The translations under genes and the position numbers were made by a program. Below the pieces are notes generated by a model. It saw nothing but the letters and a program-made list of their open reading frames with translations, ran no database searches and was not told the origin of the DNA. From Minisyncoccota bacterium (GTDB lineage: Bacteria; Patescibacteriota; Minisyncoccia; Phycocordibacterales; PALSA-1337), in assembly GCA_041663145.1 (NCBI GenBank), contig JBAZRG010000002.1, forward strand, positions 22,384 through 86,383: a stretch of 64,000 nt of DNA. The letters run 5' to 3'. Of this stretch, positions 1 through 18,054 are shown piece after piece (positions within the stretch are counted from its first letter, which is position 1; every line of letters begins with the position of its first letter).

Positions 1-270
1 TGTTGCACTACTGAATTTATTACTTTCAAGTCAAACATATATTTAGTTGTTATTGATTTTTTATTAAGTTGTGACTATATCTATTGTATCTCATGGTCAA
101 TATATCATCTAGATATAATATATCATGCGATACCCTCTAAACTAAAATGTCCGCCGGTAGGCGAACTTCTCTAGACATGATGTAGTATACACTATTTTTT
201 GCGTTTGTAAAGTATCTAGCTATTCACCAAGCTCAATAAGTCCAATACCTTTGAATCATTACGTGGTGTG

Positions 271-300
271 TTGACAAGTAGCTATTATGTGCTGTATAAT
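271..300 (+). promoter_or_regulatory. sigma70-like promoter for the DGR target gene: TTGACA (271-276), 18-nt spacer, TATAAT (295-300)
   Basis: Perfect consensus -35 and -10 hexamers read directly in the sequence, about 135 nt upstream of the likely ATG at 437. Confidence 0.5.
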
Positions 301-436
301 TATTAAGGTAGTTCTTTGATATGCCAGTTACGTTCACCATAACAGAAAGCGTCTCAAAACTGAGGCATTTTCCGTTGTGGTGAACTGTAGTAACCACACA
401 TCAACAAAACAACGTATACGAAAGGTAATAACGATT

Positions 437-1123
437 ATGAAATCGATTACACCTGGTCAGATGGAACAGTTTGCTCGTTTTGTGACAGATGCTTCCGGTC
501 CAAGCACGAAGACGGCTCTTGAGCAGCTTCGCGACGACTGGGAATTCAGTCATGAAGGTCTTCAGCGCGCGCTCGGAAAAGGTAATCAGCTCAAATCCCG
601 CCTTATTCCGCTTCTCAAGGCCATGATCAAGGAAATGGCGACTAATATCCAAGGATGCGTGAAGCGCATCCTTGATGGAGAAGAGATCGCCATCGCCAAA
701 ACGAGCGGAAAGGAAAATCTCGCCCATGCCAAGGACGTTTTCACCGGTTGGGTTGATCCCGACTTCGTGAATTACGGCTGTGATGTGGAAGGGGAGCCTA
801 CCGCTCCGACACCTGTAGAGGTGTTCGAGATGGTGGAAAACGGCGACTTCGCGCGGATATTCGGTGGTTTCAATGTCAGCCTCGATCAGCTGCGTCTTTC
901 ACAGCACCAGATCAAGGCTTTCGCAAGGGATCACCGTGATAAGCTCCGCACGGAAGGATACGGGACCTTCTTCCTGTTCAAGGTTGGCGAAGAGTTCTTC
1001 GTTGCGTACGTGCACTTCTACGGCGGCGGGCGGCTCCGGGTCTACGTGCACCGCTTCTCGGACGTCAACGTCTGGGGCGCCGAGCGCCGTCATCGCGTCG
1101 TGCTCCCGAAACTGAACCAGTAG
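437..1123 (+). CDS. DGR target protein; the C-terminal about 40 aa are encoded by the variable repeat
   Basis: ORF 377..1123; the likely true start is the ATG at 437 (MKSITPGQ), which has an upstream AAGG. The gene is GC-richer than its surroundings. Its 3' 119 bp is an adenine-mismatch copy of the downstream template repeat. The fold is not recognisable from sequence; DGR targets are usually C-type-lectin-like. Confidence 0.7.
   Translation: MKSITPGQMEQFARFVTDASGPSTKTALEQLRDDWEFSHEGLQRALGKGNQLKSRLIPLLKAMIKEMATNIQGCVKRILDGEEIAIAKTSGKENLAHAKDVFTGWVDPDFVNYGCDVEGEPTAPTPVEVFEMVENGDFARIFGGFNVSLDQLRLSQHQIKAFARDHRDKLRTEGYGTFFLFKVGEEFFVAYVHFYGGGRLRVYVHRFSDVNVWGAERRHRVVLPKLNQ
996..1114 (+). repeat. 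DGR variable repeat (VR)
   Basis: 119 nt aligned without gaps to 1482-1600. There are 18 mismatches, every one at a position where the TR has A (VR has T, C or G). There are no mismatches at TR C, G or T positions. Confidence 0.9.
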
Positions 1124-1481
1124 GTTCACCTACTGGGTGGCACTTGCAAATTAGCCTTGAGCCTTTGGCTCTCAGTCCCTCTGATCCTTGTCAAAATTTA
1201 TTTTGGCAAATCAGGGGGATTTTTTGATTGAGCACAATCACCTACTGGGTTATACTGGAATGGCACGCATGAACGTACGGTGGCTATGGCTCCTGTGCCA
1301 CGCTTGTGAAGAAATACGTTCGGGAGTTCTGCTGGATATGTCTTGCAGAAGAGTGGATGTATTATTATCTAAACAAAAAATAATCAGTTGGTGTAGCGAA
1401 CTGGAGGACTTCAAGGTCCCGAATACTATTCAATTTGTCCTGATTGGGCGGGTGGTGTACTGGATGGTCCGCTACACATTA

Positions 1482-1600
1482 TCTTCGTTGCGAACGTGAA
1501 CTTCAACGACGACGGGCAGCTCAAGGTCAACGTGAACCGCTTCTCGAACGACAACGTCTGGAACGCCGAGAACCGTCATCGCATCGTGATCCCGAAACTG
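1482..1600 (+). repeat. DGR template repeat (TR)
   Basis: Invariant partner of the VR. Read in the VR frame it is rich in AAC codons (aac ttc aac gac gac ... aac gtg aac ... aac gac aac ... aac gcc gag aac), the classic DGR design that allows diversification without stop codons. The six-frame ORF 1496..1765 is this TR read in frame and is not a gene. Confidence 0.9.
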
Positions 1601-1615
1601 CAATTTCTCTCATCA

Positions 1616-1984
1616 TTATTTGGTGAGAGTTTTGTTGAGTGTCGATTTAGCAGACGGACTTTGAAGGCCTTTGCGCCATCCACCAAGCATCCGTCCTATT
1701 TCTTCGAGCTTTTCCGAGAGTTCTGTATATTTGTCAGTCGGCATGAGCTTGCTCTCCCATGCTAGTTGATAAAAGAATTTAAGAGTATCTACCTTCGTTA
1801 TTGTTCGACCAAGCATTACCGTTTTGGTTTCTGGTGGTAGATATATGCAAGAAAAACTAAATTCCAAAGTATCTAAGAATAAATCCTCGATCTTTTGCCC
1901 GATGCCGAGTCGTTCGACCCTCGGAAAGTTCCTATGAATAGTTAACCAAAACTGATATGCTTCTTTTTCCTTTAAAATTACCAC
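1616..1984 (-). CDS. avd: DGR accessory variability determinant (Avd), a four-helix-bundle protein
   Basis: 122 aa. The C-terminal ...LSEKLEEIGRMLGGWRKGLQ matches the Avd-type EVGRILGSWI ending, and the N-terminal EAYQFWLTIHRNFPRVERLG matches the Avd/23S-IVS-protein helix 1. It lies between the TR and the RT, but on the opposite strand. Confidence 0.7.
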   Translation of the reverse strand: MVILKEKEAYQFWLTIHRNFPRVERLGIGQKIEDLFLDTLEFSFSCIYLPPETKTVMLGRTITKVDTLKFFYQLAWESKLMPTDKYTELSEKLEEIGRMLGGWRKGLQSPSAKSTLNKTLTK

Positions 1985-2024
1985 TGGAGAATTGCGGGGG
2001 GGGGGTCGTTATAGTCATTTTATT

Positions 2025-3021
2025 TATGAAAAATAATGGGGTTTCGTACAACCATATCATATCTCTTAAAAATATCCACGAAGCGTGGCGCGAATTTGTC
2101 TCGGGCAAAAAATACAAAAAAGATGTCGCTGAATTTCTGCTCAGACTTTCGGAGAATACATATAAACTCCACACTGATCTGAAAAATAAAATATATGTTC
2201 ATGGACCGTACGAAGCGTTTGCTGTTAATGATCCAAAACCGCGCAGCATCCATAAAGCAAGCGTGCGGGACCGCTTACTCCACCACGCCCTCTATCGACA
2301 ACTCTACCCGTACTTTGATCAGAAGTTTATTCATGATTCCTATTCTTGCCGTGATTTTAAGGGAACACATCGGGCATTGGACCGTTTTATGCAATTTGCC
2401 CGCAAGGTTTCGAAGAGCAATAAACGCACCTGCTGGGTGTTGAAATGTGACATACGCAAATTCTTTGCTTCAGTTGACCATTCAGTCCTCATGGCAATAC
2501 TTAAAAAGCATGTCTCTGATTCTGATATTATCCGCCTTGTTGGTGGGGTAGTGGAGAGTTTTAAAAGTACTGGTCCAGGAAAGGGATTGCCGCTCGGTAA
2601 TCTCACGTCACAACTCCTTGTAAATGTTTATATGAATGAGTTTGACCAATATGTAAAGCATGTCCTCAAACAGGAGTTCTATATCCGTTACGCTGATGAT
2701 TTTGTGATTATGCATCACGATCGCAAGGCTTTGCTCGAGGTATTGCCGAAGATTGAAACCTTTCTTGAATCAATTCTTAAACTACAGCTTCATCCTGATA
2801 AGGTTTCTATCGAGACAGTTTCATCCGGTGTTGATTTTCTTGGTTGGGTGCATTTTCCGACTCATCGTGTACTTAGGACAAAGACAAAGAAGAGAATGTT
2901 TACAAGAATTGAAGATTCACAAGGAAAGGAAGAAGTAGTATGTTCATATCTCGGTATGTTAAAGCATGGGAATTGCAAAAAATTGAAGTGCAGGGTCATG
3001 AAATTGACAATCACAATCTAA
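2025..3021 (+). CDS. DGR reverse transcriptase
   Basis: RT motifs are present: RSIHKASVRDRLLHHAL (motifs 1-2), the DGR-specific GLPLGNLTSQLLVNVYMNEFD (motif 4 I/LGNxxSQ), and YADD in YIRYADDFVIMH (motif 5). The size of about 330 aa is typical of a DGR RT. The start is taken at ATG 2025 (MKNNGVSYNHI...); the six-frame ORF extends upstream to 1957. Confidence 0.9.
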
Positions 3022-3030
3022 TTTATCGTA

Positions 3031-3185
3031 GGAGCTTGGTGAATATTGTGTATTTGCTCCTCGCAATGCGATTTGAACCCCGAACAAATTGCCCATATTA
3101 GAGTAGCTCCGTCTACTCTAATATGGTTGCAATTTGGAGTGGGTGACCTTGCGAGGAGCAAATACACAATATTCACCAAGCTCCT
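3031..3185. repeat. Element A copy 1: a 36-bp outer inverted repeat enclosing a conserved ~85-nt core with an internal 14-bp hairpin
   Basis: The arm 3031-3066 (ggagcttggtgaatattgtgtatttgctcctcgcaa) is the reverse complement of 3150-3185. The core tgcgatttgaaccccgaacaaattgcccatattagagtagctccgtctactctaatatggttgcaatttggagtgggtgacc is nearly identical to the core at 44100-44190. Confidence 0.7.
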
Positions 3186-3237
3186 GTAGACTCTATGCAC
3201 AGTGACTCGCGCTTGAATTAGCGATACAATTGACTCA

Positions 3238-4986
3238 ATGTTCGTCGAAGATGCCCAGCTCTATAAATTCATACTCGACTCCGGATTGGTGACAAAGGAG
3301 GAGCTTGAGGATGCAAAAAAAGAGAGTGAAAAAACTAATAAAAGACTTGGCGATATTTTGGTTAGTGCCGGCAAGATAAATGCCGACAATCTACGTCGCA
3401 TGCAAGCATATGTTCTCGGTATTCCTTTTGTCGATCTGAAAAACAAAAAGATCCCTTTTGAAACTCTGTCACAAATACCGGAACCGATCGCGAGAGGGCA
3501 CAATATCGTGGCTTTCAAAAAGACCGAGGTTTCTCTCGAGGTCGCCATGCTCGACGTCAACGATCTTTCGGCTATCGATTTTATAAAGAAAAAAGTAAAT
3601 CTCAAGATATTACCTCGTCTCACAGATACTGATTCGATCAAGGAGGTTCTCGTTCAATACCAAAAAAGCTTGAAGGCCGAGTTCGGAGATATCATCCAAA
3701 AAGAAACCGCGACGATGAATATGATCTCGGAAGAAAGCGGTGAAGCTATATCCGAAGCTGATTTGAAAAAGATCGCCGAAGATCTGCCGGTAGTTCGCAT
3801 TGTCGATACCTTGATTAAACATGCAATATTGCAAAATGCTTCAGATATCCATATAGAGCCGATGGAGGAACAGGTATTGGTGAGATATCGCATAGACGGC
3901 TTGTTGCACGATGCCATGGTCCTTCCAAAACAGGCAGGTCCTTCGGTCACTGCCCGTATAAAGGTCTTGTCGAATTTGAAACTTGATGAAAAACGTTTGC
4001 CACAAGACGGTCGTTTCAAAGTAGATATAAATAATGAGAAAGTTTCTTTTCGTGTATCGATATTGCCGACTTATTACGGGGAAAAGACCGTTATGCGTCT
4101 GTTACGAGAGAGCATTTCTGGTTTTACTCTAGAATATCTGACATTTCACGGTGAGAGTCTCGAACGTATTCACAAAGCACTTACAAAATCCACAGGCATG
4201 ATCCTCACAACCGGTCCTACTGGATCCGGAAAGACGACGACTCTATATACGATGCTCGACATATTGAACACTCCTGATGTAAATATTTCGACTATTGAAG
4301 ATCCTATCGAATATCAGATGGCTAGAATAAATCAGACTCAGGTCAAACCAGAGATCGGTTTCTCTTTTGCTCAAGGCATACGCACACTCGTTCGTCAGGA
4401 TCCGGATATTATCATGGTTGGTGAGATCCGAGACAATGAAACAGCCGCTTTGGCGGTGAATGCCGCTTTGACTGGCCACTTGGTTTTGTCGACACTCCAC
4501 ACAAATTCCGCCGCCGGTGCTATACCACGACTTTTGGATATGAAAGTAGAATCATTTTTGCTCGTATCTATACTAGACATCGTGATCGGTCAGCGACTGG
4601 TGCGCAGACTGACTGAAGCCAAATCACAATACAAATTGACCAAGGATGAACTGGCTGAGCTAGGTCGTCTGGTGGATTTGGAACGAGTCCTTGAAACTTT
4701 GAAGGCTGAAAAAATAGTAAAACCTAGCGATTCGTGGGAGAAGATATCTTTTTGGAAACCTGTACCGGGTGGAGATGATGATGGGTTCAAGGGTCGCATC
4801 GGTATTCACGAAGTATTGAAGATGACTCCTTCCATGAAGGATCTCATAATGAAAGATGCTAGTTCGGACGGTCTAGAAGCACAAGCTAGAAAAGAGGGAA
4901 TGTTGACCATGTTAGAAGATGGGATATTCAAATGCGTTCAAGGTTTGACGACTATTGAGGAAGTTCTTCGAGTTATTTCGGAATAA
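3238..4986 (+). CDS. pilB: Type IV pilus assembly / type II secretion ATPase (PilB/GspE family)
   Basis: 582 aa with Walker A GPTGSGKTTTLY. The GspE-family N-terminal domain and the C-terminal Zn-finger region are consistent with this family. Confidence 0.85.
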   Translation: MFVEDAQLYKFILDSGLVTKEELEDAKKESEKTNKRLGDILVSAGKINADNLRRMQAYVLGIPFVDLKNKKIPFETLSQIPEPIARGHNIVAFKKTEVSLEVAMLDVNDLSAIDFIKKKVNLKILPRLTDTDSIKEVLVQYQKSLKAEFGDIIQKETATMNMISEESGEAISEADLKKIAEDLPVVRIVDTLIKHAILQNASDIHIEPMEEQVLVRYRIDGLLHDAMVLPKQAGPSVTARIKVLSNLKLDEKRLPQDGRFKVDINNEKVSFRVSILPTYYGEKTVMRLLRESISGFTLEYLTFHGESLERIHKALTKSTGMILTTGPTGSGKTTTLYTMLDILNTPDVNISTIEDPIEYQMARINQTQVKPEIGFSFAQGIRTLVRQDPDIIMVGEIRDNETAALAVNAALTGHLVLSTLHTNSAAGAIPRLLDMKVESFLLVSILDIVIGQRLVRRLTEAKSQYKLTKDELAELGRLVDLERVLETLKAEKIVKPSDSWEKISFWKPVPGGDDDGFKGRIGIHEVLKMTPSMKDLIMKDASSDGLEAQARKEGMLTMLEDGIFKCVQGLTTIEEVLRVISE

Positions 4987-5020
4987 TATTTTTCTTTTTA
5001 AATAATCATTACACAACGTC

Positions 5021-6241
5021 ATGCCTCATTTCACTTTCAAAGCAAAAAGACCTTCGGGCGAGATTTATAGCTCGGAAAAAGACGTGAATGATCGATACGA
5101 ACTGTATAAATTGCTTCGTGAGACCGGTGATGAAGTCGTTGAATTTAAAGAAAAGAAATCAAGAGGGGGTATAAATATGGAAATATCATTGGGACGTATT
5201 ACGGACCATGTCAAAACTATTGAAAAGATAAACTTTGCCCGCAATCTAGGCTCGATGTTGCAGGCCGGACTTTCGCTATCCCGTGCTTTGCAGGTCTTGG
5301 AGCGACAGACTCGAAACAAAAAATTCAAAAAAATCTTGGCTCAATTGATCGACGAGATCGATAAAGGTACAACATTTTCTGACGCTTTAGCTAAACATCC
5401 ACGAGTATTTCCTCAATTATTCGTCTCTATGGTCAATTCGGGAGAACAATCTGGCACATTATCCGAATCACTCAGAGTTGTCGCAACTCAAATGGACAGC
5501 AGTTATTCACTAGAGAAGCGTGTCCGTGGTGCACTCATGTATCCGGCGGTCATTGTGACGGCTATGGTTGGCATTGCGATTTTGATGTTCATATTCGTAG
5601 TACCGACTTTGATGAAGACATTTACGGATCTCAATGTTGAATTGCCGTTTGCGACACGTCTGGTGCTCGGTATATCAAATATAATTCAAAATCAAGGTTT
5701 TTTGGTTCTGATCATAATACTTATTATCACATCCGGATTGTACTGGTGGACGCGAAAATCAACAGGTCAAAAAATATTGCACCGTATTTTGTTGAAGTTA
5801 CCGGTGATAGGCGAACTTGTTCAAGAGGTTAATACTGCCAGAACCGCTCGCACCATGTCATCACTGCTAACTTCTGGTGTCGATGTTGTAGAATCGGTAA
5901 CAATAACATCGGCTGTCGTCCAAAATGTTCATTTTCGAAGAGTATTGGTTGAAGTTGCTGAATCTATAAAGAAAGGTGAATCGATGTCCAAGGTTTTTTC
6001 GGAAAATATCAATCTTTACCCCGTATTCTTCTCTGAAATGATAAATGTTGGAGAAGAGACTGGAAAAACAGGGGAGATGCTCTTGGGAGTGGCACATTAT
6101 TACGAAGATGATGTATCCCAAAGAACCAAAGACATGTCTACCATCATTGAACCGATACTGATATTAATGATCGGAGCGGCTGTAGGAGTGTTCGCTCTGT
6201 CGATGATTCAGCCAATGTATTCATTGGTAAATGTTATCTGA
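5021..6241 (+). CDS. pilC: Type IV pilus inner-membrane platform protein (PilC/GspF family)
   Basis: 406 aa polytopic membrane protein with duplicated GspF-type domains. It lies directly downstream of pilB. Confidence 0.8.
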   Translation: MPHFTFKAKRPSGEIYSSEKDVNDRYELYKLLRETGDEVVEFKEKKSRGGINMEISLGRITDHVKTIEKINFARNLGSMLQAGLSLSRALQVLERQTRNKKFKKILAQLIDEIDKGTTFSDALAKHPRVFPQLFVSMVNSGEQSGTLSESLRVVATQMDSSYSLEKRVRGALMYPAVIVTAMVGIAILMFIFVVPTLMKTFTDLNVELPFATRLVLGISNIIQNQGFLVLIIILIITSGLYWWTRKSTGQKILHRILLKLPVIGELVQEVNTARTARTMSSLLTSGVDVVESVTITSAVVQNVHFRRVLVEVAESIKKGESMSKVFSENINLYPVFFSEMINVGEETGKTGEMLLGVAHYYEDDVSQRTKDMSTIIEPILILMIGAAVGVFALSMIQPMYSLVNVI

Positions 6242-8019
6242 TGGAATCCAATACAATGCATCCAAAAAAATCCAACGGTTTTTCTCTGGTGGAAGTTCTG
6301 GTGGGAACAGCTATTTTCCTGATAGTTGCAATATCAGCATATGGGATCTTTGCCAATGTTTTTCGCTTGGCTAATGGCAATCAGGCCAGAATGTTGGCTA
6401 TACAGTTGGCAGATGAACAATTTGAGATCGTTAGAAACATGCCATATCTATCAGTTGGTTTGACCAACGGTATTCCGCTCGGAATTTTGCCACAAAATCA
6501 GACTCTAGTACGCGGTAACGTGACATTTGATGTCGGCATGACTATTCGTAATGTCAATTTCTCCACGACAAGCTATCAGGCCAGTAGTAAATTGGTTGAA
6601 ATCACCGTAACATGCTCAACATGTCAAAATTTCAATCCGGTTACTTTAACAGGGCAAATATCTCCAGCAAATCTTCAATCAGCTGGAGATGGGGGGGCGA
6701 TAGTGGTTCAGGTTTTTGATGCCAATGGTCAGCCAGTCGTCGGTGCCGAGGTGGTTATTCAAAGTGTATCTACATCCACCATTACAAATACAGATGTTAC
6801 GAATAATAACGGTATTCTAAATGTTATCGGAGTGCCACCTGGAAATAATGCTTATAGAATAACTGTAAGCAAAGCTGGTTATTCGACGGAGCGAACATAT
6901 TCGATCGGAGGTGCAGGCAATCCAAACCCGATAAAACCGGATGCGACGGTGCTCAATCAACAGGTTACGCAAGTCAGTTTTGCAATAGATAAATTGAGCA
7001 CATTACATTTTTCCAGTGTCGGACCATTATGCAACGTTATTCCAAACGTGGAGTTTAATCTGTCTGGCGCAAAGCAAATCGGTGCGGATATTCCCAAATA
7101 TTCAGAAGCTTTGTCAACTGATACAAATGGCACATTGACTTTGAATTCCATGGAATGGGATACATATACACTTTTACCGACTGAAGCATCATATGATATT
7201 TACGGTATCAATCCTATTAGTCCATTTGCTCTAAATCCTGACAATATACAGGAAGTTCAATTGGTCGGTATTCCTTCCTCAGGTAATAGTCTCATGGTTA
7301 CGGTCGTAGACAGTGCCCTTCAATTGCCTATATCTGGAGTCGAAGTAAATCTTTCAAAAACTGGATATGATGTTACAAAGATCACTGGTCAAGGTTATAT
7401 GAATCAGACTGATTGGTCAGCTGGAAGTGGGCAGATCTTATTTACTGATCCGACCAAATATTATTCTGATAATGGTCTAGTCGATACGTCAACATCGACT
7501 GGAGATATATTGTTGGATCAGGCTTTTGGTCTATATAATATAAATTCCACAGGCACACTAGAATCTTCCACTTTTGATACAGGTACGACAAGTAATTTTT
7601 ATACATTTTCTTGGAATCCTTCCAGTCAGCCATCTTTAGCTGGAGTGGAAAGCGTGAAATTCCAATTTGCTTCAAATGACACATCGACTTCTACTAGTTG
7701 GGACTATAAAGGTCCAGATGGTACATCGAGCTCATTCTTTACCGTACCGGGTTCATCTATAAATAATAATCAGAACGGTAAACAATTCGTCAGATACAAA
7801 GCTTATTTATCGACTGAGGTGGCAACAGTGACGCCAATGGTCTCTGATGTATCGTTTGCATATACTTCTGGTTGTATACCACCTGGACAGGTATTATTCC
7901 AGAATCTTTCTGGTACATATACTTTGACTGTCGAAAAAGCTGGATATATCACAGTGAGTGGCAGTATAGATATCGGTTCTGATTGGCAACAAAAAAAGGT
8001 TTTACTTGAATTACAATGA
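6241..8019 (+). CDS. Large pilin/pseudopilin-like protein with a prepilin-type N-terminal cleavage/methylation signal
   Basis: The N-terminus ...KSNGFSLVEVLVGTAIFLIV fits G|F-S-L-V-E with Glu at +5. It has a long Ser/Thr/Asn-rich extracellular region and is translationally coupled to pilC. Confidence 0.7.
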   Translation: MESNTMHPKKSNGFSLVEVLVGTAIFLIVAISAYGIFANVFRLANGNQARMLAIQLADEQFEIVRNMPYLSVGLTNGIPLGILPQNQTLVRGNVTFDVGMTIRNVNFSTTSYQASSKLVEITVTCSTCQNFNPVTLTGQISPANLQSAGDGGAIVVQVFDANGQPVVGAEVVIQSVSTSTITNTDVTNNNGILNVIGVPPGNNAYRITVSKAGYSTERTYSIGGAGNPNPIKPDATVLNQQVTQVSFAIDKLSTLHFSSVGPLCNVIPNVEFNLSGAKQIGADIPKYSEALSTDTNGTLTLNSMEWDTYTLLPTEASYDIYGINPISPFALNPDNIQEVQLVGIPSSGNSLMVTVVDSALQLPISGVEVNLSKTGYDVTKITGQGYMNQTDWSAGSGQILFTDPTKYYSDNGLVDTSTSTGDILLDQAFGLYNINSTGTLESSTFDTGTTSNFYTFSWNPSSQPSLAGVESVKFQFASNDTSTSTSWDYKGPDGTSSSFFTVPGSSINNNQNGKQFVRYKAYLSTEVATVTPMVSDVSFAYTSGCIPPGQVLFQNLSGTYTLTVEKAGYITVSGSIDIGSDWQQKKVLLELQ

Positions 8020-8627
8020 TGAATAAATCCATTTATAACAAAGGTATGACTCTAGTCGAAATATTGGTTGCCATAGCGATTTTTCTTGTTGTCCTTGGAG
8101 CTTTGATGTTATTTTTTAAGAATATTTTCTCATACAGGACAGTTATTTCTGGTTCTTATGAGACTACTCAGCAGGCCCAAGCTATCTTGAAAACAATGTT
8201 GACCGAGATAAGACAGATGTCACCTGGAGCCAATGGTGCCTATGCTCTGGCCTTATCTGGAACAAGCACTATAGCCTTTTATTCTGATTCCAACGCTGAT
8301 GGCGTAAAAGAAAAGATCACTTATGAACGTGTCGGTACAGATCTATATCGAAGGCAAATCATACCATCCGGTTCTACTTATAATCCTGCAAGTCAAACAT
8401 CAAGTATTATCGTTCGGAGCGTGCGAAATGAAAATACCTCTCCTATCTTTGAATATTTTAATGAGTATTATAATGGTACAAGTTCACCACTCGTCCAACC
8501 AGTCACTACGACTCAAGTCCGACTTGTGAAGATCAATCTCCGATTGGATATCGATCCGAACCTGTCTCCCGTGCCGGTTATGTTCACTACACAGACAAGT
8601 ATTAGAAATATCAAAACCAATTTATGA
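8016..8627 (+). CDS. Minor pilin-like protein (prepilin N-terminal motif)
   Basis: The N-terminus ...NKGMTLVEILVAIAIFLVV fits the prepilin signal. Its start overlaps the stop of the upstream gene. Confidence 0.7.
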   Translation: MMNKSIYNKGMTLVEILVAIAIFLVVLGALMLFFKNIFSYRTVISGSYETTQQAQAILKTMLTEIRQMSPGANGAYALALSGTSTIAFYSDSNADGVKEKITYERVGTDLYRRQIIPSGSTYNPASQTSSIIVRSVRNENTSPIFEYFNEYYNGTSSPLVQPVTTTQVRLVKINLRLDIDPNLSPVPVMFTTQTSIRNIKTNL

Positions 8628-10156
8628 TTAAAAGATTTTTTGAGTGGAATAAGAAGCGAAACTCAAATCAAAATAGGGGAGATATTTTGGTTACCTCGTT
8701 GGTTTTTGGTGCAATCGCCCTTATGGTCGTTGTCGGTCTGATAAATTGGGGTGTATATATAATGAAATCTATCAGGGCGACGGTTTCTCGCGAACAAGCA
8801 TTCCAAATAGCCGAAGCTGGTGCTGACTATTATCAATGGCACTTGGCGCAGTATCCGACTGATTATCAGGATGGCACATCTGGCTCTGGTCCATACAGTC
8901 ATGATTTTTTTGATAAAGATGGAAATTTACTAGGTTCATTTCATCTGACTATTACTCCACCTCAGATCGGATCTACTGTGGTCAAGATTGTTTCTGAAGG
9001 CCGAATAGCCTCATCGAGTATTGCTCGTAAGATCGAAAAGACGATGGCGATTCCATCTCTTGCTCGATATGCGGTCGTAGCAAACGACAATATGCGATTT
9101 GGTGAAGGTACAGAGGTATTTGGTCCGATCCAATCAAACGGCGGTATTCGTTTCGACGGTGTCGCACACAATCTCGTATCGAGTGCCATGAGTACCTATA
9201 GAGATCCGGATACTGGCCAGACGGAGTGGGGAGTGTATACAAATGTTGGAACGGATGACCCAACTCCGCCAACAGCACTTCCAAATCGCTCCGATATCTT
9301 TATAGCCGGTCGCCAAGTCGGAGTGCCAAGAACAGACTTTGTCGGGCTTACGGCCGGTCTCACAAATCTACAAACTTTGGCACGTGCAGGAGGTAAAGAA
9401 TGGACATCTTCTGGTAGTAAGGGATATCACATAATTTTGAGAACCGATGGAAAATACGATATATATAAAGTAAATTCTTTACAAGCTTCACCTAACAGCA
9501 CTTGTTCAGATGGTGGTGATTCACAAGTGCAATGGGGAACATGGAGTATAAAAAATAAAAATCCGAATGATAGCAATCAGCCGAATCAAACTTATATAGG
9601 TAGATATAATTTTCCGACTAACGGCGTGATATTCGTAAATGATCATGTTTGGATCGATGGACAAATCGACAGTGCTCGTTTAACTGTAGTTGCGGGTCTT
9701 ATAGGCAATACTGATCCGACCAAGAATGCCAATATCACAATAAATAGCGATCTTATATATAGTAGTTATGATGGTACAAATTCTGTTGGTTTGGTAGCAC
9801 AAGGCAATATCAACGTCGGATTGGTTTCGGAAGATGATATTCGTATCGATGCTGCATTGGTAGCTGAGAAAGGCCGTGTTGGCAGATTTTTCTATAATTC
9901 CAGTTGTTCTATAAGTGGTACTGCATATTGGCATCGTGATTCTCTGACTTTATATGGAATGATAGCAACATATGTCCGTTATGGTTTCGCCTATACAGGA
10001 AACAGTTTCAATTGCGGAGGTTCTATAGGTAGTACAGGTAGTGGATATTGCATCCGAGATATTACTTACGATGCAAACCTATTGTATGCACCACCTCCTT
10101 CATTTCCACAGGCCACAACGCAATACCAAGTGATATCGTGGCGTGAAATCAAATAG
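8624..10156 (+). CDS. Pilus-associated protein (PilX-like; hydrophobic N-terminal anchor without the canonical Glu+5)
   Basis: 510 aa. The N-terminus has a TM helix (ILVTSLVFGAIALMVVVGLINW). It is translationally coupled to the pilin genes. Confidence 0.5.
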   Translation: MIKRFFEWNKKRNSNQNRGDILVTSLVFGAIALMVVVGLINWGVYIMKSIRATVSREQAFQIAEAGADYYQWHLAQYPTDYQDGTSGSGPYSHDFFDKDGNLLGSFHLTITPPQIGSTVVKIVSEGRIASSSIARKIEKTMAIPSLARYAVVANDNMRFGEGTEVFGPIQSNGGIRFDGVAHNLVSSAMSTYRDPDTGQTEWGVYTNVGTDDPTPPTALPNRSDIFIAGRQVGVPRTDFVGLTAGLTNLQTLARAGGKEWTSSGSKGYHIILRTDGKYDIYKVNSLQASPNSTCSDGGDSQVQWGTWSIKNKNPNDSNQPNQTYIGRYNFPTNGVIFVNDHVWIDGQIDSARLTVVAGLIGNTDPTKNANITINSDLIYSSYDGTNSVGLVAQGNINVGLVSEDDIRIDAALVAEKGRVGRFFYNSSCSISGTAYWHRDSLTLYGMIATYVRYGFAYTGNSFNCGGSIGSTGSGYCIRDITYDANLLYAPPPSFPQATTQYQVISWREIK

Positions 10157-10170
10157 TCTGACCTCACATA

Positions 10171-10959
10171 ATGGGGTACAATATAAGCCATATGAAAAAT
10201 AGAAGATTAGTGGTTGGAAATTGGAAGATGAATCCGACGACGGAAGAAGAAGCAAAAGAAATTGCCAGAAAAGTCCGTCGTACAGTTTCTGGTCTCGGAT
10301 CTATCGAGACTGTTTTGTGTCCGCCGTATATTTTTGTCTCGGCGGTTCGTCCCAGTGTCAAAGTCCCTCATTTTCACGTTGGCGCACAATCGGTTTCGTT
10401 TTTGGAGGGGGGTTCTCATACAGGAGAAGTCGGTGCTCAAATGCTCAAAGATTCGGGAGTCGAATATGTTATAGTCGGTCACTCAGAAATGAGGGCAATA
10501 GGTGATACGGATGAGATTGTTTCAAAGAAGATCGCCGCTGTATTGGAGGCGGATCTGAGTCCAATAGTCTGTTTTGGAGAAAAAATCCGTGATGAGAGTG
10601 GTTCCCACTTCAATTTTCTTAAGGAACAGATGAAAAATACCCTAGTTAACATACCAAAATCAAAAAGTTCAAAGATAATTATCGCCTACGAACCGATTTG
10701 GGCTATTGGCGCCGCGGAAGCGATGAAACCGGAAGAAATATATGAGATGTCTATTTTTATTAAAAAAATATTCTCTGATATATTCAGTATAAATCTGGCC
10801 CATAAGATCGATGTGCTTTATGGTGGAGCTGTTACATACAAAAATGCTTTTGATATTGTGAAGACTGGTCAGATAGACGGTCTCTTGGTTGGCAGAGAAA
10901 GTGTAAATGTAACTGGTTTTGTGGAATTATTAAAAGTAGTCGATAGTGTTCCTGTATAA
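10171..10959 (+). CDS. tpiA: Triosephosphate isomerase
   Basis: TIM hallmarks are VVGNWKMN, GAQ..TGE..., VGHSE.R and IAYEPIWAIG. Confidence 0.9.
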   Translation: MGYNISHMKNRRLVVGNWKMNPTTEEEAKEIARKVRRTVSGLGSIETVLCPPYIFVSAVRPSVKVPHFHVGAQSVSFLEGGSHTGEVGAQMLKDSGVEYVIVGHSEMRAIGDTDEIVSKKIAAVLEADLSPIVCFGEKIRDESGSHFNFLKEQMKNTLVNIPKSKSSKIIIAYEPIWAIGAAEAMKPEEIYEMSIFIKKIFSDIFSINLAHKIDVLYGGAVTYKNAFDIVKTGQIDGLLVGRESVNVTGFVELLKVVDSVPV

Positions 10960-10998
10960 GATAGATATAGCGTTAGATTTTTTTAATAATCATTTTCA

Positions 10999-12147
10999 AT
11001 GAAAACACTTAAGACATTAAAGGATATAGAAGTATTGAGAGGAGTCAGGGTTCTTGTTACGACGGATTTCAATGTGCCAATCAAAGGTGGTTTTGTAGCT
11101 GATCCATTTCGTATCGATTCGGCTATGCCGACTATAGAATATCTACGAGAAAAGGGAGCCAAAATAATTTTGGTGAGCCATTTACAATTAGTAGATGGTG
11201 AAAATGGTAGTCTTCAACCGGTTGCGGATTATATAAATAAGTCAGGTACACCAGTAGTATTTTTGAAAGACTGGAAAAAGGCGCATGAGACGATAGAGAA
11301 TATGAAAGATGGTGAATGTATTTTGCTTGAGAATATCCGTTTTTTTGAAGGAGAAAAGAAAAATGATCCAAAATTCAGCAAAGAGCTGGCTTCACTGGCT
11401 GATATATTTGTAAACGACGCATTTTCGGTTTCGCATAGACCACACGCCTCGATCATCGGAGTTCCAGCATTACTGCCGAGTTATGCCGGTTTGCAAGTAG
11501 AAAAAGAAATAAAAAATCTCTCTTTTGCCTTCAATCCACCTCATCCATTTCTATTTATCTTGGGTGGAGCAAAGTTCGCGACGAAACTTCCGCTTCTTCG
11601 GAAATTCTTTGATACGGCCGATTCCGTCTTTATTGGAGGCGCTATGGCAAATGATCTTTATAGACAAAAAGGCTATGAAATAGGCATTTCCTTGGTTTCA
11701 AAACCTGATGGAGATGAAAAAGCACTCGATCTTTCGGAATACGCAAACAATCCAAAATTGATTTTATCCGAAGATATTGTAAATCAAAACAAGGATGTGA
11801 AATCAGTAAGGGAATTGTTGAAGACCGATAAAATATTGGACGCTGGACCAAGTGCAATAGACGCTTTAAGATCGGTAATCGCCAATGCGAAATTTATTCT
11901 CTGGAATGGCCCACTCGGTCTTTATGAAGAAGGATACAGCGATGCGACTTTGGAATTGGCAAAATTGATAGGGGAGGCAACAGAAAAAGGTGCCACCTCG
12001 ATAGTTGGTGGTGGTGATACTTTGGCGGCTATCGAAACTCTGGGGATTGAAAAAAAGTTTTCTTTCATTTCGACCGGCGGCGGAGCAATGCTGGATTTTT
12101 TGGCAGACGAGAGTTTGATAGGTTTAGAATTTTTGTTTGATAATTGA
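10999..12147 (+). CDS. pgk: Phosphoglycerate kinase
   Basis: 382 aa with the N-terminal RVLVTTDFNVP and conserved C-terminal PGK motifs (GGGDTLAAI, STGGGA). Confidence 0.9.
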   Translation: MKTLKTLKDIEVLRGVRVLVTTDFNVPIKGGFVADPFRIDSAMPTIEYLREKGAKIILVSHLQLVDGENGSLQPVADYINKSGTPVVFLKDWKKAHETIENMKDGECILLENIRFFEGEKKNDPKFSKELASLADIFVNDAFSVSHRPHASIIGVPALLPSYAGLQVEKEIKNLSFAFNPPHPFLFILGGAKFATKLPLLRKFFDTADSVFIGGAMANDLYRQKGYEIGISLVSKPDGDEKALDLSEYANNPKLILSEDIVNQNKDVKSVRELLKTDKILDAGPSAIDALRSVIANAKFILWNGPLGLYEEGYSDATLELAKLIGEATEKGATSIVGGGDTLAAIETLGIEKKFSFISTGGGAMLDFLADESLIGLEFLFDN

Positions 12148-13931
12148 TAACTTTCAGGAAGGTGCGTGGTATACTCTTTTGCGTGAAATATAAGATTCGC
12201 CGACCACTACTACTCGATGAACAAAATGCTTTTGCTGGGCATTCCAATCTGCTGTCACATCTATTATTCCATAGAGGAGTAGTATCGAGTGATATGGCGC
12301 GTGAGTTTATTCTTCCTGATTTCGCATCCGGCACTCACGATCCTTTTTTATTAAAAGATGCCCGTAAATCGGCAGAGCGTGTTGTTCAAGCAATAGAAAG
12401 TGATGAACGTATAGCCATATACTCGGACTATGATGCTGACGGTATTCCTGGCGCCGCGATATTTCATGATTTTTTCAAAAGGATTGGCTTTAAAAATTTT
12501 TCCATATACATACCTCATCGCCACGATGAAGGATTTGGGGTTAATAGCGAAGCTGTTCGACAATTGATAGATGAAGGCGTAAAACTGCTCATCACTCTGG
12601 ATTGCGGAATCACTGATGTTTTGCCTGTGAAGTTGGCAAAGGAAAATGGTATAGACGTTATCATCACGGATCACCATGAACCACCCGATGCATTGCCTCC
12701 AGCTTTTGGAATCATCGATCACAAACAAAAAGATTGTGAATATCCCGATAAGAATCTTTGCGGTTCGGGGGTTGCATACAAATTGATCCAAGCTATCCTC
12801 AAGATCAATCGTTTCGGACTCAAAGAGGGGATGGAGAAATGGTTTTTGGATCTAGTAGGTATAGCGACCTTGTCTGACATGGTCCCGCTCGTCGGTGAAA
12901 ATAGAATATTCGCAAAGTATGGTTTGGCTGTCCTCGGGAAAAGCCAGAGAAAAGGACTAGTTCAACTTTTTCGTAAATTGAAAATATCACAAAAAGATGT
13001 TACTGAGGACGATATCGTCTTTATGGTAACACCTAGGATCAATGCCGCATCGAGAATGGGAGTTCCGATGGACGCATTTCACATGCTGGTGGCAGAGGAC
13101 GAGGATGAAGCATATTCTGCTGTTGAACATCTGGATACCATCAACAATGAACGTAAAGGAGTCGTAGCTTCATTAGTCAAAGAAGTAAAAAAGATATTAC
13201 GAGAACGGCACATGGGTTCTATTCCCGGTGCCATTGTGCTCGGTAATCCTTTGTGGCGTCCAGCCCTACTAGGTCTAGTGGCAAATTCATGTGCCGAGGA
13301 ATTCAGACGACCGGTATTTCTCTGGGGGCGTGATGGAGAAAACATGATTAAAGGATCATGTCGTTCCGAAGGTACTTCGAGTGTTGTCGAGATCATGCGG
13401 ACTGCTTCTACTGGTACGTTTTCACAATTTGGTGGACATCATCATTCTGGTGGTTTTGCTGTGGCGAATGATCAGATCCATTTCCTAGAACAAAAGTTAA
13501 ATGAAGCTGTTGAAATGATAAAATCTCAAAGACAAACAGGTGGTGATACAGCGAAAGATGGAATTCAAGAAGATAAGATAGAAGATTTTATGGTTGATGC
13601 TGAATTGAAATTGGATGATATCAACATCGGTTTGTTTAATGACATCGATAAATTGGCTCCGTTTGGCATGGCAAATCCCAAGCCGATTTTCATATTCCGT
13701 AATATATTACCCATTTCTATAAAGAAGTTTGGAAAAACCAAGGATCATGTCGAACTCATTTTCAATAAAAAAGACGGCAGTAAAGTCTCGGCTATTTCAT
13801 TTTTTGGTGCGACAAAAGATTGGGCGGAAAAGATACGGGAGAATGTCAGGATAGATCTGATCGCAACTCTGGAAAGGTCACTGTTTAAAGGTAGACCGGA
13901 ATTGCGTCTCCGTGTTGTCGATATAATATGA
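12144..13931 (+). CDS. recJ: Single-stranded-DNA-specific exonuclease RecJ (DHH/DHHA1 phosphoesterase)
   Basis: The DHH motif ITDHHEP, AIYSDYDADGI and the DHHA1 region are present. The start codon is uncertain and may be a non-ATG start upstream of ...LLSHLLFHRGV. Confidence 0.8.
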   Translation: MITFRKVRGILFCVKYKIRRPLLLDEQNAFAGHSNLLSHLLFHRGVVSSDMAREFILPDFASGTHDPFLLKDARKSAERVVQAIESDERIAIYSDYDADGIPGAAIFHDFFKRIGFKNFSIYIPHRHDEGFGVNSEAVRQLIDEGVKLLITLDCGITDVLPVKLAKENGIDVIITDHHEPPDALPPAFGIIDHKQKDCEYPDKNLCGSGVAYKLIQAILKINRFGLKEGMEKWFLDLVGIATLSDMVPLVGENRIFAKYGLAVLGKSQRKGLVQLFRKLKISQKDVTEDDIVFMVTPRINAASRMGVPMDAFHMLVAEDEDEAYSAVEHLDTINNERKGVVASLVKEVKKILRERHMGSIPGAIVLGNPLWRPALLGLVANSCAEEFRRPVFLWGRDGENMIKGSCRSEGTSSVVEIMRTASTGTFSQFGGHHHSGGFAVANDQIHFLEQKLNEAVEMIKSQRQTGGDTAKDGIQEDKIEDFMVDAELKLDDINIGLFNDIDKLAPFGMANPKPIFIFRNILPISIKKFGKTKDHVELIFNKKDGSKVSAISFFGATKDWAEKIRENVRIDLIATLERSLFKGRPELRLRVVDII

Positions 13932-13944
13932 TATTGTATTCTCT

Positions 13945-14673
13945 ATGAATCCAGCTTCAAACATCACTATATTTACCGATGGATCCTCACGTGGCAATCC
14001 TGGTCCTGGGGGATGGGGTGCCATTATCGTAGATAAAAAAGAAGATCAAAATAAATCTCACATTCGAGAGATTGGAGGCTCGGAGAAAAATACGACGAAT
14101 AATAGAATGGAATTAACTGCAGTTTTACGTGCCATTGGAAGTACGGCAAATGAAACAGTCAGTACAGTTTATACAGATTCCTCGTATGTCATAAATGGAA
14201 TAACCAAGTGGATCCATGGCTGGAAAAGAAATGGTTGGCAGACAAAAGCCAAAGAAGATGTCCTGAATAAAGATCTATGGGAAGAATTGGATAGAAATAT
14301 AAATAATAAAAAAATATCTTGGAAATATGTCGGGGGACATGTCGGTATTGCTGGAAATGAACGTTGTGATCTAATAGCGACCGGTTTCGCCGATGGTATC
14401 AAAGTCGATCTGTATGACGGCCCTTTGACTGGATATAAGGATAAAAATATTCTGAATATATCACTCGATCATACTAAAGCCACAGATAAAAAATCCAAGT
14501 CCAATCGTTCCAAAGCCAAAGCTTATTCATATATAAGTAGCATAAACGGTAAGATTGAAATCCATAAAAGTTGGCCGGAATGTGAAAAGAGAGTTAAGGG
14601 TGCAAGAGGAGCTAGATATAAAAAGGCATTGAGTCCACTAGAGGAGGCTGAAATTGTTGATGAATTTAAATAA
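13945..14673 (+). CDS. rnhA: Ribonuclease HI with a C-terminal basic extension
   Basis: Motifs TDGSSRGNPGPGGWGAII, NNRMELTAV and YTDSSYVINGITKWIHGWKRNGW are present. Confidence 0.85.
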   Translation: MNPASNITIFTDGSSRGNPGPGGWGAIIVDKKEDQNKSHIREIGGSEKNTTNNRMELTAVLRAIGSTANETVSTVYTDSSYVINGITKWIHGWKRNGWQTKAKEDVLNKDLWEELDRNINNKKISWKYVGGHVGIAGNERCDLIATGFADGIKVDLYDGPLTGYKDKNILNISLDHTKATDKKSKSNRSKAKAYSYISSINGKIEIHKSWPECEKRVKGARGARYKKALSPLEEAEIVDEFK

Positions 14674-14782
14674 CCAAAGAACCTCCCAGAAATAACTTCC
14701 CTCCCGTCTCCTGCGGGCGCTAATCGCTGGCTACCCATCCTCGGAGCACGGGAGGGAAGTTATTTCTGGGAGGTTCTTTGGT
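14672..14782. repeat. Element B copy 1: a 36-bp perfect inverted repeat enclosing a conserved 39-nt loop (cctgcgggcgct...atcctcgg)
   Basis: The arm 14672-14707 (aaccaaagaacctcccagaaataacttccctcccgt) is the reverse complement of 14747-14782. It overlaps the rnhA stop codon. Confidence 0.75.
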
Positions 14783-14836
14783 TAATTTAGACTTTCTTAA
14801 TCAGGATTTTAAGTTCCGCTTCTATAATGAACTCTC

Positions 14837-16198
14837 ATGAATCGGAGAGTTTATTTATTTTGGAGCATATTGGTTGCCATTGCTTTGCTTCGTATCTGGC
14901 ATTCCTTTGACATGGATATTCCAGATATCGGTTCTTGTGTTAAAGAAAATGTATCTGGTGTTGGTATTGTTCATACTGAACCGGAACGTAAAGAGTCAGG
15001 TCAGATCATGCTAGTTCGAGTGTTGGATATGCGAGTCGCCAGTACTTCGGAATCGTGTGGAGAGGAAGTGATCCTTAGAGTAAAGACAAAATTGTATCCG
15101 CGTTTTGTATTTGGCGATAAGGTTTCATTTCAGGGAAAATTGTCTGCACCGTTCAATTTCAAAAGTGAAAACGGTAGATCGTTCGATTATATAGGTTTTC
15201 TAGCCAAAGATGAGGTGTTCTTTGAAATAAAAAGCGCGTCTGTGCGTAAATCTGATTCAGATCAGTCGATGAATAGTGGGGGAATAGTCAGTAAAATTCA
15301 ATCAGTTTTATTTCAATTGAAAAGAGGCTTTGTAGTAAATCTAGAAAATGCACTCGGTGAACCACATGGCGCTCTAGCAGCAGGTCTGGTAGTTGGTGAG
15401 AAAGCTGCTCTGGGAAAAGATTTGCTCGACGATTTTCGTCTGGTTGGACTGATTCATATTGTAGTCTTGTCTGGATATAACATCACTATCGTCGGAGATG
15501 CTATGAGACGATTGCTTTCATTTTTACCAAGAGTGTGGGGAATTGTTTGTGGTGGTATAGGAATAGTATTGTTCGGAATTTTGGTCGGGGGAGGTGCGAC
15601 TGTGGTCCGATCTTGTTTTATGGCTTCCATCGCTCTTTCTGCAGATCTTATTCGTCGAGATTACAATGTCATACGAGCTCTCATATTTTCAGCTCTACTC
15701 ATGCTCATTGAAAATCCGATGATTTTGCTTCATGATCCTTCTTTTCAATTATCATTTCTAGCTACAGCCGGTCTCATAGCATTGTCTGGACCTATAGAGA
15801 GTAAGTTGACGTTTATAACAGAAAAGTTCGGTATGCGTGGCATAATAGCTTCTACTTTAGCTACACAGGTTTTTGTCTCTCCGTTCATCCTATATATGAT
15901 GGGACAGATATCTGTGATCGGTATTGTTGTAAATATATTAGTATTACCACTCATTCCGCTCACAATGTTTGTTGTGTTTCTAACGGGAGCATTGGGTTTT
16001 ATAGAACCACACATCTCAGAGATTGCTGGATACTTTTCACATTTACTCCTATCGTACGAATTATTCATGGTTGAGAATTTTGCAAAGTTTTCTTTCGCTG
16101 CCATAAAGGTCCCGATCTTTAGTCAGTGGTGGGTAGTGGGTTTCTATGGGGCACTTATAACGGTTTGGTTCGGAGTTAGGAGATTGAAAAGAATGTAA
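14837..16198 (+). CDS. comEC: ComEC/Rec2-family DNA-uptake channel protein (DUF4131 plus competence domain; lacks the C-terminal MBL domain)
   Basis: 453 aa polytopic membrane protein with a ComEC-type competence-domain core (VGLIHIVVLSGYNITIV). Confidence 0.65.
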   Translation: MNRRVYLFWSILVAIALLRIWHSFDMDIPDIGSCVKENVSGVGIVHTEPERKESGQIMLVRVLDMRVASTSESCGEEVILRVKTKLYPRFVFGDKVSFQGKLSAPFNFKSENGRSFDYIGFLAKDEVFFEIKSASVRKSDSDQSMNSGGIVSKIQSVLFQLKRGFVVNLENALGEPHGALAAGLVVGEKAALGKDLLDDFRLVGLIHIVVLSGYNITIVGDAMRRLLSFLPRVWGIVCGGIGIVLFGILVGGGATVVRSCFMASIALSADLIRRDYNVIRALIFSALLMLIENPMILLHDPSFQLSFLATAGLIALSGPIESKLTFITEKFGMRGIIASTLATQVFVSPFILYMMGQISVIGIVVNILVLPLIPLTMFVVFLTGALGFIEPHISEIAGYFSHLLLSYELFMVENFAKFSFAAIKVPIFSQWWVVGFYGALITVWFGVRRLKRM

Positions 16199-16464
16199 CT
16201 CTGTAGATCATCTTGGACGATGTGGGCGAATAAACATCCAATACCCTTGAATTTATGTCAAAAAATGCTATATTTGAGTCACTTTTATGCAAAAATAAGC
16301 CAATGAATCAAATCATCTATATTCTATGTTTGTCGATCGTCGAGCAAGAGATAGTCACGAATCTTTTGAGATGAACCCAGAATATGTGGATAAGATTCTA
16401 GACGATATGCGAAGGTTATTAAAGATGTGGCTCAAATTGTCAGTGTCGCAACAGGTAAATAATT

Positions 16465-17589: not shown

Positions 17590-17591
17590 TC

Positions 17592-18053: not shown

Positions 18054-18054
18054 C

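Follow-up and report, generated by a model that had tools for sequence, protein, structure and literature searches.

A 64,000-nt stretch of DNA from a Minisyncoccota bacterium (contig JBAZRG010000002.1, positions 22,384 to 86,383; hereafter the window, numbered from its first letter) very probably contains an intact, chromosomally encoded diversity-generating retroelement (DGR) of Candidatus Paceibacterota, arranged in the layout B3 that is typical of the Candidate Phyla Radiation (CPR). The first-pass annotation had proposed a full DGR architecture near the left end of the window, and all of the parts are present: a target gene ending in a variable repeat (VR), a template repeat (TR), a gene for the accessory variability determinant (avd), and a reverse transcriptase (RT) gene, with like gene order at 46 related loci. 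Unless the minus strand is named, features described below lie on the plus strand.

Architecture B3, TR-(avd)-RT, represents 90% of the CPR DGRs in the survey of Wu et al. 2018 (PMC5758913), and the cassette follows it in having TR (+), avd (−), and RT (+) in this order in a CPR host. DGR clade 2 is likewise CPR-restricted, cellular rather than viral, and composed of elements whose targets have no recognizable domains (Roux et al. 2021, PMC8144416). Because both the layout and the clade are already published, the cassette belongs to a known DGR type. It shares with CPR B3 and clade 2 elements the host group, the gene order, the reverse-strand avd, and a chromosomal rather than phage-borne location, as well as a target that has no recognizable domain, signal, or membrane segment and a VR of unclassified type; the basic anatomy differs in no respect. 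The features that apparently go beyond published descriptions of CPR DGRs are a permuted-looking leader in the template RNA, a conserved G tract, and a VR scaffold that is weakly C-type-lectin-like. In the literature covered, which did not include Paul et al. 2017, no description for CPR DGRs was found of the covarying 215-nt leader, the terminator-embedded promoter, the G8-G12 tract, or the target 5′ untranslated region (UTR) considered below.

Repeat pair and adenine signature

The VR (996-1114) encodes residues 187-226 of the 228-residue target, and the TR (1482-1600) contains 31 adenines (26%). Recomputed pairwise alignment of the two repeats spans 119 nt gap-free, and its 18 mismatches all fall at TR adenines, just as the first-pass annotation had claimed. 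Eighteen of the 31 TR adenines differ and none of the 88 non-A positions does, a distribution with a hypergeometric chance probability of 2.2e-13. One base 5′ of the repeats, the pair 995 T and 1481 A is a nineteenth difference of this type. In the frame of the target, the TR holds nine AAC codons, a count that agrees with its earlier description as packed with them, and has an A in 20 of 40 codons, allowing about 2.6e18 protein variants. The last 11 nt are identical between VR and TR, and the flanks diverge directly after the repeat. No other TR-like copy was found in the window by an A-tolerant scan of both strands.

Three nucleotides past the end of the VR/TR homology begins a hairpin (1117-1136; CCAGTAGG TTCA CCTACTGG) with an 8-bp stem and a 4-nt loop, located by a stem scan, that folds at about −16 kcal/mol and holds the target stop codon. 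The hairpin is not conserved; relatives have different post-VR hairpins or none.

Avd and reverse transcriptase

The avd gene is a 122-residue open reading frame (ORF) on the minus strand (1616-1984), pointing toward the TR and away from the RT gene. Its product matches Pfam PF22296 (bAvd) at 43 bits, against a cut-off of 40, and NCBIfam DivGenRetAVD at 59 bits, under the cut-off of 80; a sequence search of the PDB gave no match. The first reading of this ORF, as an Avd-like protein ending in EIGRMLGGW, was right about the motif and wrong about the ending, as the frame extends 16 residues past GGW, and it had left the minus-strand orientation unremarked. A stem-loop (1607-1629) supplies, with its loop, its 3′ arm, and the U-run after it (1616-1633 in all), the avd stop codon and the five codons before it, so that the 16 residues extending past the Avd domain may be a by-product of an RNA element.

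The RT gene (2026-3021, Pfam RVT_1) encodes 331 residues from an ATG at 2026; an alternative in-frame ATG at 1957, the call of one gene caller, would give 354 residues. Among solved structures, the best relative of the enzyme is chain 8ub7_A of the cryo-EM series 8ub7-8ube (142 bits, E = 1.8e-40, residues 10-297), with an alignment that begins at residue 10 counted from the 2026 start. This chain is taken to be the Bordetella DGR RT (bRT), on the basis of its length, its IGSLTSQ motif, and the residue numbering of the associated paper. LGNLTSQ in the window RT aligns to IGSLTSQ and YADD to YMDD. By comparison, group II intron RT reaches 81 bits, and the chains whose depositors called them 'retron-type' RT reach 76-79. 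The DGR-type assignment made earlier from the LGNLTSQ and YADD motifs is thus sustained, by bit scores rather than by a tree.

A family of related loci

The target has 126 homologs, none functionally named; taxon labels for the source exist for a few, and every one of these is CPR. A 100%-identical protein is labeled Candidatus Paceibacterota (CPR). A scan of species-representative genomes yielded 79 loci, nearly all labeled as Patescibacteria lineages. A TR lies nearby in 46 of 80 related loci, which, together with the window, make 47 cassettes. The order target (+), TR, avd (−), RT (+) holds in loci with protein matches, and the strand and position of avd are constant in 44 of the 47 cassettes, namely those with an avd match. 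Spacing is also regular across the 47: the target stop lies 286-407 nt from the TR, the TR end mostly 0-30 nt from the avd stop, and the avd start mostly 42-78 nt from the RT start.

The adenine signature of the window extends to the family, in which TR/VR comparison gives 767 differences at TR adenines and 85 elsewhere, the latter stemming mostly from three duplications of paralogs rather than from TR/VR pairs. Alignment of the proteins shows a conserved scaffold, ...FFVAxVxxxxxGxLxVxVxRFSxxxVWxAExRHRxVVPQL, in which the x columns are TR A-codon positions; the hypervariable columns of the family and these codon positions coincide exactly.

At about 30 loci, neither RT, avd, nor TR lies within 5 kb of the target. 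The C-termini of 33 targets lacking a nearby TR are A-depleted in the manner of VRs (0.127 A, compared with 0.26 in TRs). One such target, L010, lies on a different contig from the L006 cassette of the same genome (CAZAEF01), with no RT or TR nearby, and differs from the L006 TR at 3 non-A and 13 A positions. This match identifies L010 as a remote target, diversified in trans. Exchange is also visible within target genes. Nucleotide homology of the window begins at 728 with L011 and at 943 with L006, and L001 has an 83%-identical target, yet more distant RT and Avd proteins. These patterns point to exchange of N-termini between relatives and indicate that target N-termini and DGR cores have been recombined, with the C-terminal domain traveling with the core. 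In a separate case (L019:5550-6122), the TR has 15 A's and a single difference from its VR, and the avd/RT gap is 214 nt; by its sequence, this template looks decayed or overwritten.

The template RNA

Between the target gene and the TR, a promoter scan identifies TTGAGC, a 17-nt spacer, and TATACT (1228-1256, −10 box 1251-1256) as the promoter of a TR-containing RNA. In 44 of 47 cassettes, the first invariant hairpin is preceded, at a constant distance of 24-27 nt, by a TATAAT or TATACT box, often itself after TG. In most cassettes, a TTGNNN hexamer 16-18 nt upstream of the −10 box lies within the 3′ arm of the target-gene terminator. That terminator-like hairpin (1176-1225; arms TCCCTCTGAT and ATCAGGGGGA at 1176-1185 and 1210-1219, then T6) keeps its position in most of 46 aligned cassettes; by eye, both of its arms differ among them.

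The promoter is followed by a structured leader of 215 nt (1263-1477), the covariation of which was examined in an alignment of 46 cassettes extending from the target stop to just past the TR (alignment A4). The leader folds into helices P1 (1263-1267/1303-1307) with P1a (1275-1284/1289-1298), P2 (1308-1321/1355-1369) with P2a (1327-1337/1340-1350), and P3 (1391-1402/1466-1477) with P3a (1406-1409/1416-1419) and P3b (1433-1437/1449-1453). A near-invariant single-stranded CAGTTG (1385-1390) directly precedes P3. RNAalifold places 68 pairs in the leader, 50 of which have compensatory changes, including 10 of the 12 pairs of P3. Pairing holds in 94.1% of alignment cells, compared with 42-51% when the partners are slid by 1-3 columns, and double changes number 502, as against 79-119 in the slid controls; none of 500 shuffles reaches the observed values. 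Near-invariant G-U pairs assign the structure to the plus strand. Rfam has no family for this leader: a search of the 64-kb window at gathering thresholds returned only the transfer-messenger RNA (tmRNA), and an E-value search of 1-3300 returned only spurious miRNA-precursor matches on long hairpins.

Directly 3′ of the TR stands the stem-loop noted above (1607-1629; CTCTCATCA TTATT TGGTGAGAG), followed by UUUU to 1633, with the avd stop codon (TAA, antisense of 1616-1618) in its loop. An anchored scan found a stem-loop of this kind, with 7-11 bp and beginning 5-15 nt past the TR, in 41 of the 47 cassettes, and inspection by eye added five more; in L039, it is masked by N's. Its flanks read TTT-CTCYY...RRGAG-TTTT across cassettes. 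Pairs 1-3 are near-invariant and pairs 4-10 covary (position 6, for example, is CG in 12, AT in 16, and GC in 12). The element scores as terminator-like. From these features, we infer a DGR RNA of about 370 nt, transcribed from the conserved promoter and comprising leader, TR, and stem-loop with U-run.

A short repeat connects this region with the end of the target gene. The 12-mer CACCTACTGGGT occurs at 1129-1140, where it includes the 3′ arm of the post-VR hairpin, and again at 1238-1249, within an insert of ~25 nt that is common to the window, L004, and L007 and provides the TR-RNA promoter with its −35 box. The copy at 1238-1249 could alternatively pair with 1117-1125.

A G tract between avd and the RT gene

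The 41-nt region between the divergent avd and RT genes contains a run of ten G's (1996-2005), preceded by a small hairpin that overlaps the avd start and followed by a −10-like TATAGT (2010-2015). A tract of G8-G12 is present in 37 of 39 cassettes tested. Across relatives the G run measures 10 in 17, 9 in 10, 11 in 6, 8 in 3, 12 in 1, and 6 in 1, and its length varies between close relatives. Runs of at least eight G or C are otherwise scarce: the 64-kb window has two, this tract included, and 692 kb of related loci have 44, spread over 40 loci. A role for the tract as a poly-Gly coding part of a longer RT was rejected, as just 21 of 38 cassettes have an RT frame that stays open across it. 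The most economical idea for the tract, judged from the sequences, is a candidate divergent promoter controlled by slippage, that is, phase variation; it may alternatively act as an RNA element. No relevant paper emerged from a literature search that combined DGRs with homopolymeric tracts or phase variation.

Comparison with Bordetella and a model for priming

The DGR RNA of Bordetella was taken as the reference for the window cassette. In Bordetella, the spacer 3′ of the TR begins with an Avd-binding stem-loop directly after the TR, next forms with the TR 3′ end a template:primer duplex of 4 bp whose priming nucleotide is spacer A56, then an adjoining 'cPRT Stop' duplex with 20 nt just upstream of the TR, and then the RT-binding helices (bioRxiv 10.1101/2023.10.23.563531). 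The Bordetella element additionally has an inverted repeat downstream of its IMH, the site where mutagenic homing initiates (PMC5758913). The window cassette resembles the BPP-1 element (mtd-avd-TR-brt) in having Avd, adenine-only TR-to-VR differences, an AAC-rich TR, a C-terminal VR, and an RT for which the Bordetella enzyme is the closest solved homolog. The hairpin at 1117-1136 corresponds in position to the Bordetella inverted repeat after the VR. The stem-loop directly after the TR lies at what would be the Avd-binding position, and a duplex of TR-upstream bases adjoins a putative template:primer duplex. The window cassette differs in that its avd is inverted and downstream of the TR, its structured RNA lies mainly upstream of the TR, it is cellular, and its target is no phage tail fiber.

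Primer and stop-duplex strands of the Bordetella kind were not found in the downstream spacer; P3 and the complementarity to the TR end both lie in the upstream leader. The TR 3′ end AACUG (1596-1600) and the adjacent linker can pair with CAGUU (1385-1389) and bases 5′ of it. The duplex between this leader segment and the TR 3′ end is more stable for cognate than for non-cognate combinations (−6.76 versus −5.37 kcal/mol), with none of 2000 permutations as low. The strands of P3, used as a positive control, give −13.5 versus −7.9 kcal/mol, again with none of 2000 permutations as low, and a negative control pairing the leader segment with the 5′ part of the TR gives −2.94 versus −3.05 kcal/mol (p = 0.74). 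By analogy, the primer-bearing 'spacer' strand appears to have been moved upstream of the TR, with connectivity permuted relative to Bordetella, an arrangement that fits with avd filling the downstream side on the other strand.

On this model, transcription from the promoter at 1228-1256 would yield the ~370-nt RNA of leader, 119-nt TR, and stem-loop with U-run. RT and Avd would bind this RNA, as in Bordetella, with the post-TR stem-loop at the Avd-binding position. CAGUU (1385-1389) and AACUG (1596-1600) would constitute the template:primer duplex and serve in priming, and the adjoining P3, like 'cPRT Stop', would link TR-upstream bases to bases 3′ of the putative primer. The RT would then copy the TR, misincorporating opposite adenines, and the cDNA would be substituted for the VR (996-1114); the identical 3′ end TCCCGAAACTG would guide this step, perhaps with help from the hairpin at 1117-1136. 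Up to 20 residues on C-terminal β-strands and loops would be recoded in this way, giving about 1e18 variants. Stated as one joint proposal, the template RNA would be a circular permutation of its Bordetella counterpart, and Avd and RT would be switched by G8-G12 slippage in their shared control region of 40-80 nt. We offer this combination tentatively, as possible but doubtful as a whole. Within it, the primer, the stop strands, and probably the RT-binding helices would all reside in the 215-nt leader, and the only element downstream would be the Avd-binding stem-loop, doubling as the end of the inverted avd gene.

Several observations weigh against the proposed model. Its likeness to Bordetella in primer and stop duplex is one of topology only. 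Both AGUUG and AACU are near-invariant, so the core primer pairs cannot covary, and a subgroup with GAAAAU TR ends (L030, L031, L042, L058, and L060) falls outside the AGUU:AACU register. The repeat 3′ ends have no GC-rich 14-mer and no GC-rich IMH like that of Bordetella. Termination after the post-TR stem-loop is uncertain, since the U-run is also constrained by Avd Lys codons. According to Handa et al., putative 'stop' duplexes in CPR DGRs join sequences on the upstream side of the TR to sequences on its downstream side, and the window family itself gives a weak cognate signal (p = 0.03 and 0.01) for a duplex with the antisense-avd region.

A Bordetella-like RNA is accordingly a plausible, if short of probable, alternative. 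The plus-strand transcript would read through 1607-1629 into antisense avd as its spacer, and this 370-nt stretch, possibly extending to the G tract or the RT gene, would carry the primer, the stop strand, and the RT-binding elements; the leader would then act in stability, regulation, or recruitment of Avd and RT. Such an RNA would agree with the work of Handa et al. and with Bordetella, in which all essential RNA elements except 20 nt are downstream of the TR (bioRxiv 10.1101/2023.10.23.563531). Read-through would also be in keeping with a U-run of just four U's and with the 41-nt gap, in which neither a promoter nor a Shine-Dalgarno sequence belonging to the RT gene is obvious. Duplexes between the 30 nt upstream of the TR and the 120 nt downstream reach about −18 kcal/mol in all combinations, cognate ones being slightly better, at the p values just given. 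The cognate gain is only 0.7-0.9 of 18 kcal/mol, however, whereas it is 5.5 of 13.5 for P3, and the downstream complementarity uses the antisense of conserved Avd GGW codons, without compensatory change on reading of alignment A4. The segment just upstream of the TR is, moreover, already taken by P3, with its compensatory changes in 10 of 12 pairs, and every base of such a spacer would have to be shared with the avd coding sequence.

Recent activity

Complete confinement of TR/VR differences to adenines, together with intact ORFs throughout the cassette and intact RNA elements, speaks for recent activity, since other changes would be expected to build up too in a dead element. The ongoing hypervariation proposed in the first-pass annotation stays a prediction, to which the variability at A sites across the family lends indirect support. 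No assembly of this strain with a different VR was found, the sole other assembly being identical: exact-sequence look-ups of the target and RT returned only a 5.7-kb Logan contig (L081) that is 100% identical to window positions 1-3059, and scans of metagenome collections with the G-tract flanks and with a 45-nt TR segment gave 0 matches.

It is correspondingly conceivable that the cassette is a recently inactivated relic, in which the A-only signature reflects past activity and the VR is now fixed. The L019 template demonstrates that decay or overwriting occurs in the family, and the NCBIfam scores of Avd and RT are under their curated cut-offs. Those cut-offs derive from non-CPR sequences, however, and the catalytic YADD and the LGNLTSQ motif are present in the window RT. 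Promoter, leader helices, stem-loop, and G tract all fit the family consensus, and 0 of 88 non-A positions differ between TR and VR, making the relic improbable. An ordinary duplication or gene conversion beside an unrelated RT from a group II intron, retron, or defense system, for which the best NCBIfam match of the RT (group II intron RT/maturase, 149 bits, under a cut-off of 300, with no DGR RT model among the matches) might speak, is already refuted by the A-only pattern (p = 2e-13), the presence of avd, 46 relatives of like make-up, the 142 bits to the 8ub7 chain as against 81 to group II RT, and the lack of any Rfam family in 1-3300.

The target protein and its 5′ UTR

The target gene (437-1123) encodes 228 residues, divided into an N-terminal three-helix part (residues 6-69) and an α/β domain (70-228) that ends in the VR. 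Searches of Pfam and NCBIfam gave no match, and comparison of a target sequence profile with PDB sequences found no solved relative. At the sequence level, these empty searches uphold the earlier remark that the target has no recognizable lectin or Ig signature. An AlphaFold2 model built from the family alignment has a predicted local distance difference test score (pLDDT) of 91.6 over the full length, with a pLDDT of 95.3 and a predicted template modeling score of 0.91 for residues 70-228. In this model, the VR forms predicted β-strands at 186-194, 200-206, and 220-224 with their connecting loops; the variable residues alternate along the strands and also occupy the loops. Foldseek found no match to the model in the PDB, and the modeled VR domain resembles C-type-lectin folds only weakly, so that it would at best be a remote, minimal C-type-lectin-like fold.

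Among the closest known systems to be named for the target are the C-type-lectin variable proteins of other DGRs (Mtd, Treponema TvpA [PDB 2y3c], and archaeal AvpA) and C-type-lectin domains of the FGE/EgtB type. CPR VRs have been sorted into classes UVR1-6 and an ungrouped set, all without fold assignment (Wu et al. 2018, PMC5758913), and new C-type-lectin variants have been predicted for the VR domains of clade 2 (Roux et al. 2021, PMC8144416). Inspection by eye revealed no signal peptide or membrane segment in the target, which is apparently a small protein of cytoplasmic character.

A perfect promoter of the sigma-70 type precedes the gene (271-300; TTGACA, 18 nt, TATAAT, with 12 of 12 consensus positions matched), and TTGACA and TATAAT-like boxes are kept at the matching place upstream of related targets. 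The 5′ UTR of the target mRNA (301-436) is conserved and apparently structured, with a long hairpin spanning about 336-385; a terminator-like stem occupies 351-366, just before ATTTTCC. It can be aligned to the regions upstream of the targets at L001, L003, L010, L011, L017, L008, L005, and L002. The long stem is changed on both arms between loci, reading TTCACCATAACAG/CCGTTGTGGTGAA in the window and TTCGCCACAGCTTTGAC/GTCAAAGCTGTGGCGAA in L001. Loci that share the UTR include targets with no DGR within 5 kb, and its occurrence in paralogs that have no DGR of their own is the reason to suggest that this stretch of about 135 nt may be a candidate cis-regulatory leader. One UTR segment, GUGGUGAA, has two possible partners, UUCACCAU upstream and ACCACA downstream.

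Genomic context

The cassette had initially been described as GC-richer than the host DNA, a property from which acquisition by a mobile element or phage was suggested. In the window, with the mean of 42 cassettes in parentheses, GC content is 53% (49%) for the target outside the VR, 66% (59%) for the VR, and 55% (50%) for the TR; it is 45% (41%) for the leader, 40% (38%) for avd, 41% (37%) for RT, and 41% (41%) for the flanks. The description therefore applies to the target gene, VR, and TR and fails for the leader, avd, and RT, which are at or near the flank value of 41%. The part of the target outside the VR is GC-richer than the flanks in 36 of 41 relatives, by a mean of 8.4 points. High GC across relatives is a property of the gene family, and the argument from GC for recent acquisition fails. 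A phage or mobile origin argued on this ground was rejected, in view of the family-wide GC of the target, the chromosomal housekeeping genes around the cassette, and the cellular character published for the CPR clade.

Upstream of the DGR lies nusA. Directly downstream (3238-20074) is a type IV pilus block with pilB, pilC, and three pseudopilin-like genes, followed by genes for TIM, PGK, RecJ, RNase H, ComEC, an EcoRI-like adenine methylase, and a GmrSD/HNH nuclease. No phage genes lie nearby. The pilus block is absent at L001, the sole relative for which flanks were read, and its proximity therefore implies no functional link with the DGR.

Between the RT gene and the pilus block is a palindromic element of ~156 nt (3030-3185) with a perfect 37-bp outer stem, a conserved core of ~88 nt, and an inner hairpin at 3093-3126. 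A second copy at about 44067-44222 has a core that is ~90% identical and an outer stem that differs on both arms and is still self-complementary. ARAGORN found no tRNA in 3030-3185, and Rfam gave only spurious miRNA-precursor matches there; the element could be a structured RNA gene or a repeat resembling a miniature inverted-repeat transposable element. The Logan contig L081 stops inside it, at window position 3059. A 14-nt piece of its arm, TATTCACCAAGCTC, also stands alone at 221-234, upstream of the DGR. The direct repeat thus formed with 3170-3183 was considered as an insertion scar of the cassette and rejected, since it belongs to the arm of the palindromic element, which recurs near 44.1 kb. 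Farther along the window, a tmRNA gene occupies 60196-60560, with the tag peptide AKSTVSPYFGAKDFSFALA (ARAGORN; 108 bits in Rfam).

Implications

As a DGR, the cassette adds little to a group of organisms already known to be enriched in elements of this layout. Its value is as an apparently recently active DGR that is clean and complete, sits on a long contig, and has many alignable relatives. The family is well suited to asking how DGRs with an inverted avd prime cDNA synthesis, for which the covarying leader provides a concrete model, and whether DGR activity is regulated, with the poly-G tract as a candidate phase-variation switch. It is equally suited to asking which fold is used by the unclassified CPR VR classes and what their small, apparently cytoplasmic targets bind.

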